Origin: an uncultured Gammaproteobacteria bacterium
GTDB lineage: Bacteria; Pseudomonadota; Gammaproteobacteria; Chromatiales; Chromatiaceae
NCBI GenBank assembly: GCA_963824085.1
Contig: CAWGNT010000026.1
Span: 32,180 to 96,179, forward strand
Reading direction: 5' to 3'
Length of the DNA stretch: 64,000 bases
Shown here: positions 13,667 to 61,742 of the stretch, piece after piece
How positions within the stretch are numbered: position 1 is the first letter of the stretch
Layout of the letters: each line of letters begins with the position of its first letter
Notes under the pieces: generated by a model
What the model saw: the letters and a program-made list of their open reading frames with translations, nothing else
Database searches by the model: none
Told to the model about the DNA's origin: nothing
Position numbers and translations under genes: made by a program

Positions 13667-13807
13667 TTCGTTCTCCTCTTTCTCTCCAGCGGTTGAGCGC
13701 TTAAATCGCGCCGGTTTGGGGTTTGTTGTAGTCGAAAATGCGCCAATCGTAGCGGCGCGGACAGCGCTCGCGCAACTGACATTGCGGCGATCGCCCACAC
13801 GGTATAC

Positions 13808-13960
13808 GGCTTTCCGAGGTCGGGTTGCGCGCGCCGGGGGACGCCGTGGATTCTTCCCTGAAGGCTTGACGGCCGCCTCCCTGCGACCGACACCCCCGGC
13901 GCGCGCAACCCGACCCCTTCGGGCGAAAGGCGAAAAAAATCGCGTGAGCTGAGTAGAGCT
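13808..13960 (+). repeat. palindromic repeat element, copy A (perfect 23-bp stem, 52-nt core)
   Basis: GGTCGGGTTGCGCGCGCCGGGGG (13818-13840) pairs perfectly with CCCCCGGCGCGCGCAACCCGACC (13893-13915). The core between them is homologous to copies at 52.9, 54.1, 56.9, 59.4 and 60.1 kb. Confidence 0.75.
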
Positions 13961-15945: not shown

Positions 15946-17136
<1,191 letters not shown>

Positions 17137-32964: not shown

Positions 32965-34155
<1,191 letters not shown>

Positions 34156-52808: not shown

Positions 52809-52920
52809 TCGGTTTCACCTGGCTTTGAGATTGGGGTCGAAGACGGAGGGTGTCGCACGAGGCGATAGGCCCCGCATGCGGGGCGGAGCGCGCATATACA
52901 CGGCTCATATCTCGTTTTCG

Positions 52921-53066
52921 GTTCTCCGCGCTAAGGGGCCCGGAAGCTCGGTCGGGGGTGACGGCGGCACGGAGGATGCCATAAAGCCTACGAGGATGTA
53001 GTTACGGCGTTCCTCGGCGGGCGCAACCCGGCCCCGGAAAAGCGAAAGACCCAAGTACGAAACGTA
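52921..53066 (-). repeat. palindromic repeat element, copy D
   Basis: 52-nt core 52969-53020 is homologous to the reverse complement of the copy A/B cores. Right arm and flank TCCTCGGCGGGCGCAACCCGGCC-CCGGAAAAGCGAAAG; left arm degenerate. Confidence 0.6.
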
Positions 53067-53151
53067 TAACCTCCAAGAGGGTTCAGTGGAAACCGCCCCT
53101 GGATGAGTCGTGCCGGACCCACACCAGGGGCAATCGTCCTGCCTCTAAGCG

Positions 53152-53805
53152 CTATTCCCAACGGGGAGGCTGTTGACCGCTCACTCCGAACTGCGTGGCG
53201 AGGACGTCTGTCCGCGCCCGCTTCTCCGGGTCTTGCGTGGGCGGGCGCAGGCGGCGTGTCTCCACCTCCCAGACCCAGCCGCTGATGGTGACATCCTTTG
53301 GTATCAGGGGATGGTTTCTGAAGGTCTCGATGGTCTTCATGCACGCCGTATCGACGTCATCCATCATGCCGATCCATTTGGCGAACGCACCCTGGTCGAG
53401 CCGGAGCTCGGGTAACGTCGGATCCAGGGTTAGGTTGTCGATGTCGACGCCCTTGTCACGCAGCACCTTTTCTAGATCGGCGGCGTTCGCAGACAACATG
53501 CCGCACTGGGTATGCTGGACGATGACAATCTCCTTCGTGCCGAAGAAGTTGCAGGTCAGCATCGCCGAACGGATCGCATCGTCGGTGACTATGCCGCCCG
53601 CATTACGAAAACAATGCGCATCGCCGCCGCCCACCGGGGTGTCGACGCGAATACCGAGGGCCTCATCGACGGGCAAGCGCTCGTCCATGCAGGCGAGGAC
53701 CCACAAGCGGCGATTGTTGGGTCCCTCAGGTCCGTAACGGCGTCGAGTCGCCCAGTGGTCAAATTGTGTAGTTCTCGCCTCCAGTTCTTGCTTCAGCGTG
53801 GCCAT
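53152..53805 (-). CDS. beta-class carbonic anhydrase family protein, clade-D type (candidate CS2/COS hydrolase)
   Basis: 217 aa with zinc ligand motifs CxDxR (ACMDERL) and HxxC (HTQCG), plus RNAGGIVTDDAIRS, NFFGTKEI and RNHPLIPKDV. SD GAGGAGG upstream. Confidence 0.8.
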   Translation of the reverse strand: MATLKQELEARTTQFDHWATRRRYGPEGPNNRRLWVLACMDERLPVDEALGIRVDTPVGGGDAHCFRNAGGIVTDDAIRSAMLTCNFFGTKEIVIVQHTQCGMLSANAADLEKVLRDKGVDIDNLTLDPTLPELRLDQGAFAKWIGMMDDVDTACMKTIETFRNHPLIPKDVTISGWVWEVETRRLRPPTQDPEKRARTDVLATQFGVSGQQPPRWE

Positions 53806-53879
53806 TCTCCAAACCTCCTCGGGGATCGTGATGTGTCAGGTTCGCGTTCTGTGTTCGGATGCCGAACATCAGCATCTAA

Positions 53880-53895
53880 AGCACGCACTGTGCCA
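53880..53895 (-). promoter_or_regulatory. sigma-54 (-24/-12) promoter candidate for the hydrolase gene
   Basis: Minus-strand sequence TGGCACAGTGCGTGCT against consensus TGGCAC-N5-TTGCW. GG and GC are at the correct 10-nt spacing. It lies 75-90 nt upstream of the ATG, with an A/T-rich tract just upstream. Confidence 0.6.
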
Positions 53896-53952
53896 AAATA
53901 AAACACCTTGAAAAATCGGTAACTTAGGAAGGTGCGAAGCCTGTCCGTGAAG

Positions 53953-53962
53953 CGTTCGAACG
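53953..53962. repeat. 10-bp perfect palindrome CGTTCGAACG (candidate activator site)
   Basis: Read directly; centred about 60 bp upstream of the -24 element. Confidence 0.3.
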
Positions 53963-54084
53963 ACTTTGGCGCATGAGATCTCTGCTAACAGGTTGAAAAA
54001 CGCCAGAAATCGTGATGACGCGGAAACTTCGCAGTGTGAAGAAGAGCTTCGCAGGCTCTTGGACGGACGAAGAATGAGCTAATA

Positions 54085-54256
54085 CCGTTTCGATCTGGGC
54101 TCTTTCGTCTCCAGTGGACTGGCCGCTCCGACCGGGGGACGCCGTAAATACGTCCATGCAGGCTTGACGGCAGCCTTCCTGTTGCCGATACCCCTGGCGG
54201 GACCGGCCAGTCCCCTCTGGTCCGGAAGCGCAAAAGTCGGGCGAGCTCGGAATAGG
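54085..54256 (+). repeat. palindromic repeat element, copy B
   Basis: Arms 54116-54138 / 54191-54213 give 19 Watson-Crick pairs plus 1 GU out of 23. 52-nt core 54139-54190. Both outer flanks present. Confidence 0.75.
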
Positions 54257-54266
54257 ACATCGACAT

Positions 54267-54283
54267 AGTACAAAATTTGTACT
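54267..54283. repeat. 17-bp palindrome AGTACAAA-A-TTTGTACT (candidate operator/UAS)
   Basis: Read directly; immediately right of repeat copy B in the divergent promoter region. Confidence 0.3.
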
Positions 54284-55009
54284 GGCAGGCAGGTGCGCGA
54301 GACCGGTGTTGACGCGGCGCAGCGAGCAGGCGGGGAATCAGACCACAGCTGTTGGAATATGAGGCGGGTGCACGCGTGTCCATGAAGCGCTGATCGATGG
54401 TAGGTGCCAACGCTTCGCGCGGCGCGATGGCATGGAGGTCGTCGGCGTTTGCCATTCGCATGCAGACCACCCAGCGGAGCCATCGGAGCCGGACCGAAAT
54501 TGCGTTGAGGATGGGTTGACGGACGCCAGATCATCGACAGATCGTCGATCGACCCGGGAGAAATGGATTTCTTGGTCTATATTAATTTCGTGGCGTGGGG
54601 TGTGGAATAAGAAGCACGTGTGAAACGCCACACCTGGGGGAAAACGAGAAGATCCATTGCCGACAGACAGGTCCCGTAGGCATCGGGATCGGCGGCGGGC
54701 CCGCGGCAATCCCTCCCCGGGACGAGGAGACCCGGGAACAGTCGGCACGTCGCCGAACACTTTGCGCTCAAGAAGCGAGCAGCGAGCAACGCGATCGTCC
54801 TCTGGCGGTGGCCGCCCAAGGCCCTAATTTCGTTGTGCACGCTCGACGTGCTTGCGGATTGGTCAGTGCTTGCTAAACCGTCGGGAACTGCGCTTTGGGC
54901 GCTGTCTGCAAGGCATCTTGCGCCGTCTGAGGGTGTTTGATCGACGTCCCGACGGTCCTGCAATCTCGGCATGCCACTCACCTGCCGGTGAGGCCGGGAG
55001 AAGGGGCAA

Positions 55010-55025
55010 TGGTGCCGTCGTTGCC
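55010..55025 (+). promoter_or_regulatory. weaker sigma-54 promoter candidate for the exporter operon
   Basis: TGGTGCCGTCGTTGCC has GG and TTGC at consensus spacing, but the -24 box is TGGTGC. It lies 60 nt upstream of ATG 55085; AGGAGA SD at 55071. Confidence 0.4.
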
Positions 55026-55084
55026 CTGTTCCGTGGCATCAAAGGGGAAATCGAAGACCTAACCAACCGAAGGAGAATCGACGT

Positions 55085-56479
55085 ATGGCAAAAAACGTCA
55101 TGGTCGCTGAGGACGAAGAGGCCCTCCAAAGCATGGGGTGGCGGGAGATCTGGTTGAAGGAGGACTGGTGGGCGATCTGGCTCGGCCTGGGTATCGTGAT
55201 CGTGGCCTATCTGTTCTTCGCTAACGGCGCCTCGATCAAGTGGATCGCGATCACGCCGGGGAAATGGTCGACGTTTGATCAGGTGCTCGGCGACTTCAGG
55301 TCGCACATCATCCAATATATCGCCCAGTTCATCCTGTGGCTCGTCGTGTTCAGCGTGAGCATGCGCATCATGGGCCACAAGATGAGCGAGTTCATACCCG
55401 CGTTTGTGTTTATCTACTTGGTCTCGATCCTGATCTTCATGGTCGGGGCCTGGGACCAGGCGCATCACTACAACCTGGAGCCGCCGTTGGTCGCCTTGCT
55501 GCTGGGTATGGTGATCTCCAACCTCATTGGCCTGCCGCGCTGGATGGATACCGGGTTCCGTGTCGAGTACTACATCAAGGTAGGCATCGTGCTGCTGGGT
55601 GCCACCCTGCCGTTCACCCTGGTGATCTGGGCAGGCCCGGTGGCGATCTTCCAGGCATCGATCGTCTCGATCACCACTTTCCTCGTTATCTACTTCGTGG
55701 GGCGCCGCTTGGATCTCGATCGGCGCCTTTGCGCGACGCTCGGCGCCGGTGGAGCGGTCTGCGGAGTGTCCGGTGCCATCGCCATCGCCGGTGCCGTGGG
55801 CGCCAAGAAGGAACATGCACCGATCGCCATCACCATGGTGATCGGCTGGGCGATCGTGATGATCTTCTTCCTACCTCTGGTCTCACGTACGTTGCAGTTG
55901 TCGACCGGCGTCGCCGGTGCCTGGATCGGCACCTCGGAGTTCGCCGATGCAGCCGGTTTCGCCGCCGCTCAGGCCTACGGCAACCTGGCCGGAAACGTGC
56001 CGGGGATCAGCGGCACGGCCGATCAGTCGGTGTGGGCTTTCACCCTGATGAAGGTGGTAGGCCGCGACATCTGGATCGGGATCTGGGCCTTCGTGCTGGC
56101 CATCATCGCGACCACTCGCTGGGAGACCGAGACGGGCAGCAAGCCGCAGGCGGCAGAGATCTGGTGGCGCTTCCCGAAGTTCGTCATCGGTTTCGCGCTG
56201 GCTTCGATTCTGGTCACCTGGGTCACCAGCGGCTACTCCTTCGAGGACTTCAACAAGATCGTCAAGCCGGAGTTCGTGGGGCCGGTGAAGGCATTGCGCA
56301 CCTGGGCCTTCATCTTCTGCTTCTTTTCCATCGGGCTGACCACCCGCTTCCGCGAGCTGGCCAGTGCCACCGGTAAGCCATTTTGGGCGTTCACCGTGGG
56401 TGTGGGATTCAACGTGGCATTGGGCTTCATACTTTCGGCGTTGGTGTTCGGCACGTACTGGACAAACCTCGCCCATTGA
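55085..56479 (+). CDS. YeiH/UPF0324-family membrane protein (putative sulfate exporter family)
   Basis: 464 aa polytopic protein. Family-like motif LGAGGAVCGVSGAIAIAGAV (compare E. coli YeiH IGAGSSICGAAAVLA) and GTSEFADAAGFAAAQ. Confidence 0.7.
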   Translation: MAKNVMVAEDEEALQSMGWREIWLKEDWWAIWLGLGIVIVAYLFFANGASIKWIAITPGKWSTFDQVLGDFRSHIIQYIAQFILWLVVFSVSMRIMGHKMSEFIPAFVFIYLVSILIFMVGAWDQAHHYNLEPPLVALLLGMVISNLIGLPRWMDTGFRVEYYIKVGIVLLGATLPFTLVIWAGPVAIFQASIVSITTFLVIYFVGRRLDLDRRLCATLGAGGAVCGVSGAIAIAGAVGAKKEHAPIAITMVIGWAIVMIFFLPLVSRTLQLSTGVAGAWIGTSEFADAAGFAAAQAYGNLAGNVPGISGTADQSVWAFTLMKVVGRDIWIGIWAFVLAIIATTRWETETGSKPQAAEIWWRFPKFVIGFALASILVTWVTSGYSFEDFNKIVKPEFVGPVKALRTWAFIFCFFSIGLTTRFRELASATGKPFWAFTVGVGFNVALGFILSALVFGTYWTNLAH

Positions 56480-56549
56480 TGGAGTCGACGGAGGTAGCGC
56501 CGGCTCCGCCGGCGCTACCCCAGTTTCCGAAACGAGTGAGACAAATGGG

Positions 56550-56756
56550 ATGGACAAGCTCGCGCACACCTGCCTCTCCTGCCGTCATTTCCGCAACACG
56601 CCGCGCTACCTGGAGTCGGTCTACAAGGGACTGTCGAGCCTCGGCTCCGCCTACGCGTCGGTGCGCAAAGACGACGGAATCTGCCTAGAACGGGACCTGT
56701 ATTTGTCGGCATCGGCATCCTGCGAACGCTATGCGGCACGCAAACCGGCGCAGTGA
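56550..56756 (+). CDS. hypothetical 68-aa four-cysteine protein
   Basis: Internal ATG of ORF 56364..56756: MDKLAHTCLSCRHFRNTPRYLESVYKGLSSLGSAYASVRKDDGICLERDLYLSASASCERY. Starts 70 nt after the exporter stop. Confidence 0.45.
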   Translation: MDKLAHTCLSCRHFRNTPRYLESVYKGLSSLGSAYASVRKDDGICLERDLYLSASASCERYAARKPAQ

Positions 56757-56793
56757 GCCGGCCCTAGCCGGACCAAGCAAACGCCATTGGTTT

Positions 56794-56816
56794 GGTGACT
56801 AGTCTCAGGTGACTAG
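56794..56816 (+). repeat. tandem direct repeat GGTGACTAG-N5-GGTGACTAG
   Basis: Read directly in a locally low-GC patch. Function unknown. Confidence 0.5.
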
Positions 56817-56849
56817 AGTCGTGGCTCAGCAGGAACGTCCAGTAGGCGA

Positions 56850-56950
56850 GTCGGCGGGACGGTCGGCGCGGGCGCCGTCGAGCCTACATGGACGTATTCA
56901 CAAGGAACATCTGCCCTTGGGGCATTGCCGCCCACCGAAAGCCGGACGCC
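56850..56950 (-). repeat. palindromic repeat element, degenerate copy E
   Basis: GGTCGGCGCGGGCGCCGTCGAGCCTACATGGACGTATTCAC resembles the core of copies B, C and D. Arms poorly preserved. Confidence 0.4.
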
Positions 56951-57145
56951 TCGTCTGGTGATGGGTGGTCCCGCCCAGCCTGGCCCCATCGAACGTCACC
57001 TCCAACAAGTGCCCTTTCGTATTGCGCTTGCCTAATGCGCAATGCCGACTAGATTTCTCAGGTATGAGGGAGACGTAACGGAGTCGATTGGGACATCGTC
57101 GCTAGAGCTTATTCGTTCTTCACTTTGGGTCCATTGGAGGCCATC

Positions 57146-57952
57146 ATGAGCATCACACGCAGGTTGTTTGTCGGGGCAGCCGTCAGCGGCGCCGCGGTTG
57201 TGACGAGTGTTGCTGCTGGTGTTCTTACATCCCGCGGGGTTAGAGCAGCGCTCCCGGCCGGGACCTTTTTTGCCGCATCCCCGGCCGAGGCCATCGGTGC
57301 AGTTCTTGGTACTGACCAGAGCACGCCGGACCCGGCCGTACAGCTGGGCATTACAGACACGGTAGAGATGGCGGACATGGTGCCTCTATCCGTGACGACG
57401 ACGTTGGACAACGTGGAATCGATCACCATCGTCGCCGATAAGAACCCCAACCCCATCATTGCATACTACAGATTGGACCCGCAGTTGCAGCCGTACGTTG
57501 CGACGCGCGTGCGCTTGGCCGAGTCGGGCGACGTTCACGCGTTGGTCAAGTCTGGTGGAATTGTCCATCGAGCCACCAAGAACGTGAAAGTTGCCATTAG
57601 TGGCTGCGGCGACCCAGAGCCTGGGCCAAGCGATATCGTGATGTCCAATCGCTTCTTGATTAGGACGGCGAAGGATGGCGACGGCGTCGTAGTCCGTGCG
57701 CTGATCCATCACCCGATGACGCCGCCACGCAAGGACCCGGCGCGAGGGCTTCCGGTGTCCGGCCAGTTCATCCAAGAAGTCAAGGCGCAGGCCAACGGCA
57801 AGACCGTGCTAAACAGCGACTGGAGCGCGGGCGTGTCTCAGGATCCCTATCTGTCGTTCAAGATGCGGCACGCGGCGCAAGGCGACATCATCCGCATCAC
57901 TTGGACTGACAATGCGGGACACAGCGCCTCATCGGAGGTGACGGTCAGCTAG
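57146..57952 (+). CDS. soxYZ: fused SoxY-SoxZ sulfur-carrier protein with Tat signal
   Basis: ORF 57125..57952. ATG at 57146 lies 5 nt after GGAGG. Twin-arginine signal SITRRLFVGAA. The SoxY carrier motif VKVAISGCG is followed by linker DPEPGPSD, then a SoxZ-like domain (VVVRALIHHPMTPPRKD...ITWTDNAGHSASSEVTVS). Confidence 0.8.
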   Translation: MSITRRLFVGAAVSGAAVVTSVAAGVLTSRGVRAALPAGTFFAASPAEAIGAVLGTDQSTPDPAVQLGITDTVEMADMVPLSVTTTLDNVESITIVADKNPNPIIAYYRLDPQLQPYVATRVRLAESGDVHALVKSGGIVHRATKNVKVAISGCGDPEPGPSDIVMSNRFLIRTAKDGDGVVVRALIHHPMTPPRKDPARGLPVSGQFIQEVKAQANGKTVLNSDWSAGVSQDPYLSFKMRHAAQGDIIRITWTDNAGHSASSEVTVS

Positions 57953-58089
57953 TGCGCCGAGTCAGAAACCCAACCGGGGCGGTGACGACGGGCGAGTGTG
58001 ATTTCGCCGTGTCGGGCATTGGCGGTGCAGGATGTCGACACCGCTTCGGCATGAAGGCAGGATCAGACGGTTCGACCTCACGAGGTAGC

Positions 58090-58736
58090 CGCATTGACTT
58101 CTCCAACCAGTGAAAAACCAGGTGCTCTTTGCGTTCTTAAAGGGCCAAATGCTTTTCTTTGGTTCATCGGTTTGGCGACCAGGTTGGCCAGGCGATCAGG
58201 AAGGCCAGCCAGCAGGTGCCGAAGCTGGTTGGCACCGAGCAGGACTCGGAGATCGTTTTCGCCTCGCGCGGCACCGGATCCGACTCGACTGCCATTTTGT
58301 CGGCGCTGAAGGCCCAGCCCGAGCGCAAGGAGATCATCGCCACAGTCGTAGAGCCTCCGGCCGTGCCGAACTGCTTTGTCACGGGTGATCCGGGCCACCG
58401 GTTGCCGAACACCAGCAACGTCGCTTTCGAGTACATCGAGGGCGAGGCTACCTTATTGCTGCTGAACAAGAGAGGGAGTGCCACCTCGTCCGGCTTAGTC
58501 CGCACCTCGGGTTCGCCGGAGCCTTCGCACGTCATGCGTGCTATGGGAGCTCCGTTGACCGTCGCCCACGGGACGATCCGTTTCTCCCTGTCCCGCTACA
58601 ACTGGATGGAGGAGATCGAAAGGGTCATCTCGGCCGTGCCGCCGCTGTTGTGCAACTGCGTAAGCTCTCGCCGTATTGGAGCCAGAATGGACCGCTGGAG
58701 AACCGGCAGACGGCGTTTGTGCCGGCCTATGCATGA
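58090..58736 (+). pseudogene. nifS: decayed nifS-type cysteine desulfurase relic
   Basis: Pieces in three frames align with NifS as I remember it: FGDQVG...SDSTAILSALKAQPERKEIIATVVEPPAV joins directly to FVTGDPGHRLPNTSNVAFEYIEGEA...EPSHVMRAMG...IRFSLSRY. This removes about 240 codons, including the PLP lysine. The catalytic loop reads SSGLVRTSGS (Cys lost). The C-terminal QLRKLSPYWSQNGP is in another frame. Confidence 0.8.
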
Positions 58737-58899
58737 CGGGTTTGAAGGTCAACGGGTATCCCTCCGACCGGACCAGGAGACGTGACGGCGCTCGGCGCCA
58801 AACAGCCTCTCTGGCCCCTTGAATGATGAGGAACCAGGCTTGACTACGGCCTGAGATGAGGGATGAAGAGCGTCCGAGGGGATCATGCGCCACTATTGC

Positions 58900-59330
58900 T
58901 TCATCATTATTCATAGCGAGAGTTGTGCACATTCGTAGTGCAGGAAGGATTGCGGCTACATCATTTCGCGGTACGAGTCAACAGGTGTTAATTAAGCATT
59001 CGGGAATATAGTGTAACGACCTGAAAATCTGACGGAAATCTGCCTGGTTAAATATTGGTCACTTTAATAAGATCGTAACAGTGATCTGGGCTTGGTCGAA
59101 TGAGAAGGCCGGGTATTCACAGACTTATCCACAAGAGCGGTGGATAGAAAATGGTTTCTCGTCACTGACTTGGGCTTGTGAACCTGTTTCGAGAACCAAC
59201 TTTAATAGCGGACTGCAACCCCTTCTGCGAAGCATCTCGCTGGCCCTATCCAACAACTTCCTCCGTTGACCCTTGGAGCAACTTGACGCGATACAAAAGT
59301 TCGCGTTTGCAACAACGGCAATCATGGGGG
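58900..59330. other. low-GC (~40%) non-coding island
   Basis: Hand counts of 38-40% GC for 58981-59100, against about 65% background. Contains TTATCCACA (59125-59133) and an inverted TATCCAC-N7-GTGGATA. No convincing ORF. Confidence 0.6.
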
Positions 59331-59371
59331 TCAGACGCGTTGCGCCCGATATACCCATCTATACCCAACGA

Positions 59372-59520
59372 ACTTGGCTCTTTCGCTTCTCCACCGGAGG
59401 GGTCGGGTCGCACACGCCGGGGTGTCGGCAGCAGGGAGGCTGCGGTCCAGCCTTCAGGACGAATTCACGGCGTCCCGCGGCGGGTGCAACCCGGCCACGA
59501 AAAACGAAACGCCCGAATAG
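59372..59520 (-). repeat. palindromic repeat element, copy C
   Basis: Arms 59401-59422 / 59474-59496. The 51-nt core 59423-59473 is the reverse complement of the copy A core type. Both outer flanks present. Confidence 0.75.
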
Positions 59521-59587
59521 GACCGGCACAACGAGGCGTTGCGGCGAACCTGGTTCTGACGGGGCAGGGTTGTTCCGCCGACTCAGC

Positions 59588-60016
59588 TTACCGCCCTGAG
59601 CGGCGCGCATCGGAGTCTGCCGGTGGCGCCGCGTCGGATGGCCGGCAGGGATAGATCTGCGCGAGCATCTTGGTTACCACCGCGCTCGCATCCGCCGTGG
59701 GATCGGGATAGCGACGCAGCCGAGCAACGACCTTACGGACGGTGAGGTCGATTGTTTCGGTGTCAGGCACACACCAAGTCGGCGCGCCTTGGCCGACAAG
59801 ACGGGCATGACACGCGCACGGAGCGGCATACCACTCGCACATCGCCGCGTCGAGGCCGGTGTTGCCCTGGGCGAATCCGCTGTCGCAAATCGAGACCAGC
59901 TTCGCGACGGTGGGCCCCGCAGCAGCGCTCTGACCGAGCATAGACAAAGGTAGGAGCAAGACCGCTGCCACAGGGGCTGCGCGGCGAAAGGGACTGCGAA
60001 GGTTGCCTATGGTCAT
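59588..60016 (-). CDS. secreted cysteine-rich hypothetical protein
   Basis: 142 aa with a signal peptide (AAVLLLPLSMLGQSAAA) and 6 further Cys, ending in a YPC motif. Loosely reminiscent of Rap1a/Tai4-type periplasmic immunity proteins, but I cannot verify this. Confidence 0.5.
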   Translation of the reverse strand: MTIGNLRSPFRRAAPVAAVLLLPLSMLGQSAAAGPTVAKLVSICDSGFAQGNTGLDAAMCEWYAAPCACHARLVGQGAPTWCVPDTETIDLTVRKVVARLRRYPDPTADASAVVTKMLAQIYPCRPSDAAPPADSDARRSGR

Positions 60017-60071
60017 CTCGATGGTCCTTTCTCTGTTAAGCGGTCGTGTCGTGACCTAAGGGTAGCGAGAG

Positions 60072-60170
60072 CTGGGCGGGGAGCAAAAGCCCTCTGCCAG
60101 GGGGTCGCGTCCAGTACCGGGTGTCCATCCGTCGACCGTGACTTCCCGCCGTGGGGTGCAATACCCGAAG
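60072..60170 (-). repeat. palindromic repeat element, short degenerate copy F
   Basis: CGCCGTGGGGTGCAATACCCGAAGGCGAATCCC matches the right arm and flank of copies C and D. Left part GCCAGGGGGTCGCG matches the left arm. Core shortened. Confidence 0.3.
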
Positions 60171-60531
60171 GCGAATCCCATCGACCCAAAGCCCGCAAGC
60201 GCATGCCGTGAATACGTTCACATTGTCACTTCGGTACCGGCAGCGGCGCTGACTTGCCCCCGACTCCGCGTTGGCCGGCAGTCGACGCCGCTCACCTCGC
60301 GTCAAGAACAGCGTTCGGCCAAGTAACGAGCTGGTTTGTGCGACGGCTATCGCAGTCCGTTGCATCGGCGGATGCTGGCCGGTGTCGCTTCTTGCTAATG
60401 TCCCGCGTAGCTGTCGCCACGTTTTCCATCCCCGGTCATGCAGATCGGCGCGCCGACGACGGGCGCGTTCCCGGGCTGTCCCGGTGACAGGGGAGTGCTG
60501 ACTTCACTTGGTCGAGAGGGACAAGAGTGCA

Positions 60532-61434: not shown

Positions 61435-61535
61435 GAGCCGACTGCCAAAGGTTGAGGGGCAGGACGCCCCGCCGGTTCCGGCGCCTTCAATCTACGGCGC
61501 CGGACACCATATCGCACGGATTTGGGTTCAGCGCC

Positions 61536-61742
61536 GGGTGATTAGTGCTGAACTTCAGCCGGAAAGCTTCGCACTCCATCCGTGGGGCCTAGATCCCGGC
61601 ACTCCCTGCCGGGATGACGCCCAGGCACGGGTCAACTTCGTCGTTCCGGCAGGGAATGCCGGAACCCAGGTGCCACGGACGGCGAGCAGCCCCGTGATAA
61701 AGCAGGCACTTCGGCGTAGCTGAGGAATGGTGCTAATCACCC
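61536..61742. repeat. nested palindromic element between convergent genes
   Basis: Outer inverted repeat GGGTGATTAG (61536-61545) / CTAATCACCC (61733-61742). Inner hairpins CCGGCA-CTCCC-TGCCGG (61596-61612) and CCGGCA-GGGAA-TGCCGG (61646-61662) are also complementary to each other (16/17). Confidence 0.45.

Follow-up and report, generated by a model that had tools for sequence, protein, structure and literature searches.

A palindromic MITE family with a YPAL/RU-2-type core in an uncultured gammaproteobacterium

YPAL/RU-2 repeats have hitherto been treated as specific to Yersinia and Pectobacterium. RU-2 is the YPAL of De Gregorio et al. 2006 (J Bacteriol 188:7876). [quoted passage not shown] YPALs, as described in PMC2229807, are 168 bp long and not AT-rich, with internal inverted repeats and no TA termini; their target-site duplications (TSDs) measure 3-26 bp and lie at or beside dyad symmetries, and copies are polymorphic between Y. 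pestis and Y. pseudotuberculosis and co-transcribed with upstream genes. Y. pestis has ~101 copies (PMC2267715), and the 168-nt RU-2 repeat of strain CO92 was printed by Delihas (Table 1b, PMC2759123). The TA-targeting MITEs Correia/NEMIS, ERIC/IRU, and RUP are intergenic, reach high copy numbers, and give long hairpin transcripts (PMC2229807, Table 1; PMC10969869), and the RAYT-REP unit is defined by a GT(A/G)G head and a short palindrome (PMC2817692; REP, repetitive extragenic palindrome).

To define the ends of the element, 159 full-length genomic copies were aligned with 60-nt flanks. The consensus is 174 nt long (window elements, 155-175 bp), starts with TATAC, and finishes with GTATA; just beyond these termini, the composition is random and conservation drops sharply, and the conserved outer arms with their TATAC...GTATA ends constitute terminal inverted repeats. 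The anatomy reads TA / TAC-outer arm (~30 nt) / inner arm (~25 nt) / 52-nt core / inner arm' / outer arm'-GTA / TA. An earlier reading made from the sequence alone (the sequence-only reading) had the core and arms right and the extent, ~150 bp, too short, the true ends lying ~20 nt further out on each side. At C14:52800-53150, one copy is nested inside the core of another, where the uninterrupted CCATG-TA-GG has become CCATG-TA[TAC...GTA]TA-GG; since the single target TA is now present on both sides, TA is a target-site duplication and the element termini are TAC...GTA. The element is small, noncoding, and multicopy (155-175 bp; 289-334 copies; 89% intergenic) and has both terminal inverted repeats and a TSD (the latter seen at one event); a parent insertion sequence (IS) or transposase sharing its ends was not found. 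The element in this genome is a MITE, with a YPAL core inside, rather than a REP. The sequence-only reading had preferred a REP-like element to a MITE and had itself named TSDs and conserved terminal repeats as the features that would overturn this preference; both are present.

Window copies were located with an iterated nhmmer profile and with a covariance model run across the window with filters off, as follows.

13803-13957, plus strand: copy A, full element with the left outer arm shortened (nhmmer, covariance model, fold)
13818-13840 and 13893-13915: perfect 23-bp inner stem of copy A, enclosing the 52-nt core at 13841-13892
54080-54254, plus strand: copy B, full 175-bp element with an imperfect inner stem; core at 54139-54190
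59360-59519, minus strand: copy C, full element with the core oriented to the minus strand; core at ~59423-59474
52895-53068, minus strand: copy D, full 174-bp element; core at ~52958-53010
52895 and 53064-53068: termini of copy D, TATAC (starting at 52895) and GTATA
56850-56915, minus strand: copy E, decayed fragment with part of the core only (covariance model, 19.2 bits, E = 0.032)
60050-60200, strand not assigned: site F, no detectable family member (BLAST, nhmmer, covariance model)

Six copies had been proposed. Four (A to D) are full members, E is a remnant of the core, and F goes undetected by all three methods. Covariance-model and nhmmer matches were 13829-13904 (88.2 bits) and 13806-13937 (plus strand) for A, 54127-54202 (76.3 bits) and 54103-54235 (plus) for B, 59411-59486 (minus, 64 bits) and 59380-59509 (minus) for C, and 52946-53022 (minus, 50.8 bits) and 52915-53047 (minus) for D, which is situated 3' of a carbonic-anhydrase gene and has identical counterparts in five other assemblies from the same population; the nhmmer match of E covers 56850-56901 (profile positions 44-101, 27 bits). 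BLAST against the whole genome gave ~200 matches with each of A, B, and C, 103 with D, and no more than a 22-nt match with E; site F matched itself alone and had no nhmmer match, nor any covariance-model match at 60.05-60.2 kb, even at E ≤ 10. A 22-nt core pattern has three matches in the window, against none in 100 shuffles. Four members lie within 6.5 kb, where 0.35 would be expected (Poisson P = 5e-4), and clusters of such density number six in the whole genome.

Around this cluster, the stretch at 52.9-59.5 kb has few genes and many repeats. A short, low-scoring open reading frame at 58159-58785 lies between E and C, where the sequence-only reading had placed a nifS relic. A separate nested palindrome between convergent genes at 61533-61656 gives weak covariance-model matches (9-15 bits) and belongs to a different family.

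The 52-nt core with its inner stem is the module at the center of the Yersinia YPAL/RU-2 repeat (Rfam Ysr224), and the core is not new. A permissive Rfam scan of short loci returned repeated matches to RF02770 ("Yersinia sRNA 224," Ysr224; sRNA, small RNA) at 19-29 bits against a gathering threshold of 70 bits, the best score on related loci being 29.4 bits and thus below that threshold. At gathering thresholds, tRNAs alone were reported in the window, with no match for the window copies; the sub-threshold matches to Ysr224 came from copies in several other genomes. The Rfam consensus of Ysr224, ...GCcGuaAAuaCauCCaUGUAgGCuCGagccGCGCCaUCCcuGGCGCggACg, equals the core in the forward sense, and the center of RU-2, cgtccgcgccaaggatggcgcggctcgagcctacatggatgtatttacggcgtc, is the reverse complement of the core and aligns with the window copies over its whole length; central sequence and fold are both shared. 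A literature search with the core sequence string gave no match, and the YPAL link arose solely from the sub-threshold Rfam match. Since the module is common to both but the ends and the type of duplication differ, the window elements are filed apart from YPALs proper, as a new variant carrying a known core.

The core folds as a three-way junction, in which a long variable stem (P1) bears two small hairpins. Mutual information and pair counts support the following helices (core numbering): P1, formed by the arms; P2', pairing positions 3-5 with 23-25 (GCC/GGC) and accompanied by a conserved GUGAA bulge; P3, pairing 11-13 with 20-22 (3 bp, capped by a hexaloop); a 2-bp extension pairing 27-28 with 51-52; and P4, pairing 30-36 with 43-49 (7-9 bp, capped by a hexaloop). 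In an alignment of 82 sequences, 96.1% of cells were paired, against 75.8% after shuffling (0/500 shuffles as high) and 30-48% in slid controls, with a covariation score of 0.509 against 0.135; the covarying pairs comprised 12/12 of P1, 3/3 of P3, and, in P4, the fifth pair. When copies were folded one by one, the minimum-energy structures showed P1 and P4 on both strands (z, -3 to -13), and that of copy A reached -73 kcal/mol (z, -8.7). The sequence-only reading had held that pairing is kept while the sequence drifts around a conserved core, which these values bear out, and its six compensated arm positions between copies A and B were reproduced exactly, with five further one-sided changes in B. 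The pairing that it had suggested between GCCGT and ACGGC is a competitor of P4 and is not the one that covaries.

Each hexaloop reads N-T-C-C-N-T on one strand, with A-N-G-G-A-N on its complement. Of 78 sequences, 76-78 keep T27, C28, C29, and T31 of loop A, while both N positions take all four bases; loop B follows the same pattern, but three of its positions are fixed by the search pattern. Among profile-collected copies of the source genome, TCC is present in 115/136 and 109/136 copies for the two loops.

A core-only profile found 289 instances in the genome (148 and 141 on the two strands), confirming that the core is repeated, and the profile for the element gave 334 matches. Gene calls from a home-made caller (4,122 genes, 77% coding) placed 213 of 240 scored copies (89%) between genes. 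Clustering at 85% identity gave groups of 44, 31, 16, 10, and 9 copies plus 125 singletons, and the largest cluster at 95% identity, the youngest subfamily, held 8; most copies are old. Core-less derivatives are present, each with its own deletion breakpoint, as an unstable palindrome would be expected to leave, and solitary outer-arm matches are likewise deletion derivatives and not an IS. One copy (L182, G000:C24:196630-197010, where G000 is the source genome) carries in its core a different MITE of ~190 bp, with ends ATCCTA...TAGGAT, internal CACGAAG repeats, and an apparent 4-bp duplication, GAAG. A role as bidirectional intrinsic terminator was rejected on the consensus, in which the T-runs of either strand are upstream of the stem and not downstream. 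Inspection of the core by eye, with no formal test, revealed no IHF, dif, attC, or DnaA-box motifs.

Beyond this genome, a scan of one genome per species with a degenerate 28-nt core pattern gave at least 106 loci. Hosts among the matches listed include Marinobacter, Thioalkalivibrio, Methylicorpusculum and other Methylococcales, Aliidiomarina, Saccharospirillum, Ectothiorhodospiraceae, a lucinid-clam symbiont, and many other Gammaproteobacteria; among the same matches, the 52-nt core is near constant, and the arms are unrelated between copies yet always complementary. With a covariance model built on the 82 sequences, the module was detected in 37 of 150 sampled gammaproteobacterial families (about a quarter), with copy numbers per genome from 1 to at least 31; it was absent from the other classes of a phylum-wide sample, matches being confined to the same class. 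At least four MITE backbones with no relation to one another contain the core, which also occurs as bare hairpins. A Methylicorpusculum metagenome-assembled genome (MAG; G031) has ~170 copies, delimited by CAGCAATTCYCARTTTGA inverted repeats and showing clear direct duplications of 9 bp (e.g., GTAAAACCG, TAATTAGCC, and CTGAAATTC), and a 214-bp subfamily there (L134-L139) has a 51-nt insert inside the second hairpin loop; the stretches between distant terminal repeats in Methylicorpusculum were considered as a parent IS and rejected, as they hold housekeeping genes only. Another backbone (G067) has the ends CTAAATACGTGTTCCGAAT..ATTCGGAACACGTATTTAG, and in G112 the module lies within a composite repeat of >250 bp. 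In G139, G081, Thioalkalivibrio, and Marinobacter, the module stands alone as a bare hairpin with a stem unique to each copy (median stem, 28 bp), mostly 15-45 nt past a stop codon. Copy numbers can be low (Marinobacter salexigens, 4; a Thioalkalivibrio MAG, 9; Aliidiomarina, 3). At three loci (L001:4300-4500, L028, and L039, in M. salexigens, Exilibacterium, and a MAG), a multi-hairpin expansion of ~80 nt takes the place of the first small hairpin, the remaining core and the arms being retained.

Evolution at fixed loci was followed in 11 locus pairs with homologous flanks at either end. Arm differences amount to 10-17 of 28 pairs in four of these, against 2-5 nt in the core (2-4 nt in the first two listed), and compensated and single arm changes number 15 and 0 (L014/L022), 17 and 1 (L075/L083), 14 and 3 (L038/L099), and 10 and 9 (L050/L084). 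One Marinobacter intergenic spacer has the element in four species with different arms, and in one of these P4 has changed from CGGCAGC/GCTGCCG to CAAAAAC/GTTTTTG under the same loop; several relatives are empty at this site (20-35 nt, no palindrome), and one has a deletion remnant. Since the empty sites hold no palindrome, the arms come together with the core. From then on, the arms change at roughly the pace of unconstrained DNA, but pairing and core are retained. Two other origins of the arms were rejected: insertion of the core into preexisting hairpins, at the single testable locus (the empty Marinobacter sites without palindrome), and copying of the arms from target DNA, as orthologous sites with the same flanks carry different arms.

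Mismatches in P1 are asymmetric between strands. Counted on the forward strand (the one with UCC loops), A.C/C.A exceed G.T/T.G by 54:12 in 77 cross-genus copies (p = 1.7e-7) and by 120:20 in 73 source-genome copies (p = 1.4e-18); on the opposite strand, the same mismatches are G.U or G.T wobbles. The direction of the bias holds whether the sense strand of the adjacent gene is the forward strand (18:6), the other strand (12:6), or neither (34:6). Strand-symmetric DNA upkeep does not predict such an asymmetry, which therefore points to a single-stranded state of defined polarity, RNA or DNA, intrinsic to the element. The core evolves as if a folded single strand were under selection.

On balance, the window copies probably represent a nonautonomous, TA-duplicating MITE family of ~290 copies in a 5.4-Mb genome, with a YPAL/RU-2 core. 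The carriers would be moved in trans by DDE transposases acting on the outer terminal repeats, and the TA duplication suggests that the enzyme in the source genome would be IS630/Tc1-mariner-like. The module may persist because a folded single strand of one polarity (RNA or single-stranded DNA) is needed, either to propagate the module itself or to act locally on transcripts. Several observations weigh against this account. The TA duplication is known from one nested insertion event only, and no alignable empty orthologous site was found for the source genome: in the comparison for copy A, a same-genus relative is ~78% identical in genes and has unalignable intergenic DNA, and five other assemblies with an identical carbonic-anhydrase gene are clonal (99.6-99.9% identity over copies B and D), without insertion polymorphism of either copy among them. 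No transposase with matching ends was found in the genome, where none of the IS630, IS4, and IS5 loci has termini in common with the element. Between codirectional genes, the core lies in sense 55 times and in antisense 65 times (p = 0.41), and its orientation is not significantly linked to local GC skew (odds ratio [OR], 1.57; p = 0.11); the absence of a bias toward genes or replication is hard to reconcile with a strand-specific function via host transcription. The module was not found in 2.9 million viral contigs or 72,556 plasmids. The cross-genus sample pattern also fixes parts of hairpin B, the invariance of which is partly a matter of ascertainment.

Several other explanations were weighed. 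Mobilization of a REP/REPIN family by RAYT would suit an element that is palindromic, intergenic, and abundant, and a search of the genome for RAYT, which had been proposed, did find a bona fide one at C24:274538-275050 (170 aa; NF047646, 141 bits against a cutoff of 80). On either side of that RAYT lie, in inverted orientation, arrays of its own GTAG-headed REPs, CCGTAGGAGCGAGCTCGCTCGCGA (G000:C24:274400-275200, outside the window), unrelated to the element, and the locus fits the published definition of the unit; the element has no GT(A/G)G head, is 4-6 times as long as a REP, and has terminal repeats and a TA duplication. So far as the tools permit, the assignment is refuted, and we give it next to no weight. 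The module could itself be mobile as a folded single DNA strand, via an HUH/Y1-type or other structure-specific enzyme, its two hairpins resembling IS200/IS605 subterminal hairpins and the MITE backbones being secondary carriers that it entered. Its presence in at least four unrelated backbones and as bare hairpins with copy-unique arms speaks for such mobility, as do the strand-specific mismatch pattern, independent of host genes, the 23 Y1_Tnp matches in the genome, and the YPAL targets, which are reported to span or adjoin dyad symmetries, with variable TSDs of 3-26 bp (PMC2229807). However, no Y1 gene systematically adjoins copies in the genome, replication-strand bias is not significant, and the empty Marinobacter sites show no prior hairpin, the arms having come with the core; guilt by association with an abundant 244-aa Y1-like protein was weak (OR, 2.1; p = 0.056), and this protein was not found in several high-copy genomes. 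We consider a mobile module unlikely. About 15 loci in the source genome have multicopy genes for Y1/HUH transposase-like proteins of 240-300 aa, below the RAYT cutoff (e.g., C26:103281-103982, 7 kb past the window end; C13:322423-323154; and C10:58920-59651), some with a C-terminal helix-turn-helix-like tail, and relatives are found in 64 of the 150 gammaproteobacterial families sampled. An IS200/IS605-derived PATE does not fit either, with no adjoining Y1 gene, no significant replication bias (OR, 1.57; p = 0.11), and a TA duplication present; nor does an integron attC site, which has conserved R''/R' sites at the stem base and a variable center, whereas the element has a conserved center and variable stems.

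The copies might also be purely selfish double-stranded DNA, with the palindrome kept by template switching in the hairpin or by gene conversion between copies and no folded strand under selection. Core-less derivatives with differing breakpoints, which show palindrome instability at the DNA level, and the lack of orientation bias agree with this, but symmetric upkeep does not predict a 4.5- to 6-fold excess of one mismatch class, a nonpalindromic core that stays within 2-5 differences next to arms saturated with changes at the same locus, or covariation in the small internal hairpins, and the idea seems a poor prospect. Somewhat better placed, though still doubtful, is the view that the module is a CsrA/RsmA-binding RNA, whose MITE copies act as decoys or bring neighboring transcripts under Csr control, the GGA-sense hairpins offering one CsrA dimer a pair of ANGGAN loops spaced by 23 nt. 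The CsrA consensus from SELEX (systematic evolution of ligands by exponential enrichment) is RUACARGGAUGU, in which ACA and GGA do not vary and GGA sits in a hairpin loop (PMC4347634), and hairpin A on the reverse strand, UACAGGGAUGU, compares with it; GGA in hairpin loops, in an ANGGAN/ACA-GGA context and at two or more sites, is found on the reverse strand only, where both loops vary at N positions only and the stem mismatches are wobble pairs. The gene csrA is present in the source genome; of 37 module-positive genomes, 33 have it, and the other four have a completeness of 67-88%. Co-occurrence is nevertheless uninformative as support, since 81% of the class sample has csrA anyway. The GGA strand is, moreover, not the preferred sense (65 versus 55 in the source genome; 20 GGA-sense versus 34 forward-sense among copies in 3' untranslated regions of other genomes), neither promoter nor terminator was identified, Ysr224 of Yersinia is a transcript of the opposite (UCC) sense, one Methylicorpusculum subfamily has the 51-nt insert in a loop, and binding leaves the strong sequence conservation of junction nucleotides and stems unexplained. 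No paper linking CsrA with such repeats was found in the literature searched. In its full form, we offer the idea as speculation at long odds: the YPAL-type core would be a functional RNA module spread by MITEs, whose GGA-sense transcript, with two ANGGAN hexaloops on a ~28-bp stem, binds one CsrA/RsmA dimer. If true, repeat copies would titrate or recruit a global regulator across many Gammaproteobacteria.

Elsewhere in the window, a 300-nt direct repeat (15946-16245 and 32965-33264; 100% identical, 17 kb apart) adjoins tRNA and ribosomal-protein clusters and probably represents duplicated tuf genes kept identical.

The YPAL core is thus seen in about a quarter of the sampled gammaproteobacterial families, on several unrelated backbones and also as low-copy hairpins that hold the same locus across species. 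Compensated rewriting of the arms around a near-fixed core is unusual for selfish DNA and, together with the mismatch bias and the ANGGAN loops, makes the role of the core testable, as CsrA binding, RNase III processing, or a single-stranded DNA transposition intermediate. In annotation, the covariance model built on the 82 sequences would flag hundreds of intergenic hairpins per genome, able to affect mRNA 3' ends. The literature searched held no description of the reach over 37 of 150 families, the multiple backbones and bare hairpins, the compensated arm turnover, the mismatch asymmetry, or the ANGGAN loops.

Compared with known systems, the element shares with REP/BIME/REPIN sequences the intergenic palindrome with pairing kept by complementary changes (PMC2817692) and differs in having no GT(A/G)G head, a much greater length, a TA duplication, and no place beside RAYT. 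Like the CsrB/RsmY/RsmZ sRNAs, it presents GGA in hairpin loops in the consensus context; here, there are two sites per unit, in hundreds of dispersed copies with no promoter or terminator identified. With YPAL, it has in common the central module, junction nucleotides, and loops (GACGCCGTAAATACATCCATGTAGGCTCGA..GCGCC-ATCCTT-GGCGC..ACG), a similar size (~168 bp), internal inverted repeats, a composition that is not AT-rich, and an intergenic location, and the source-genome subfamily GGCTCGACGGCGCC.. comes especially near. It is set apart by the descriptions of YPAL in PMC2229807, as YPAL has no TA termini and TSDs of 3-26 bp, whereas the element has TATAC/GTATA ends with a TA duplication, and the outer arms of the two are unrelated in sequence. 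The TA-targeting MITEs Correia/NEMIS, ERIC/IRU, and RUP are alike in size (100-200 bp), in requiring no open reading frame, and in their terminal TA and TA duplication, though without sequence similarity to the element; in contrast to them, the part most conserved here is the asymmetric center and not the termini, and this center is common to unrelated backbones of other orders.

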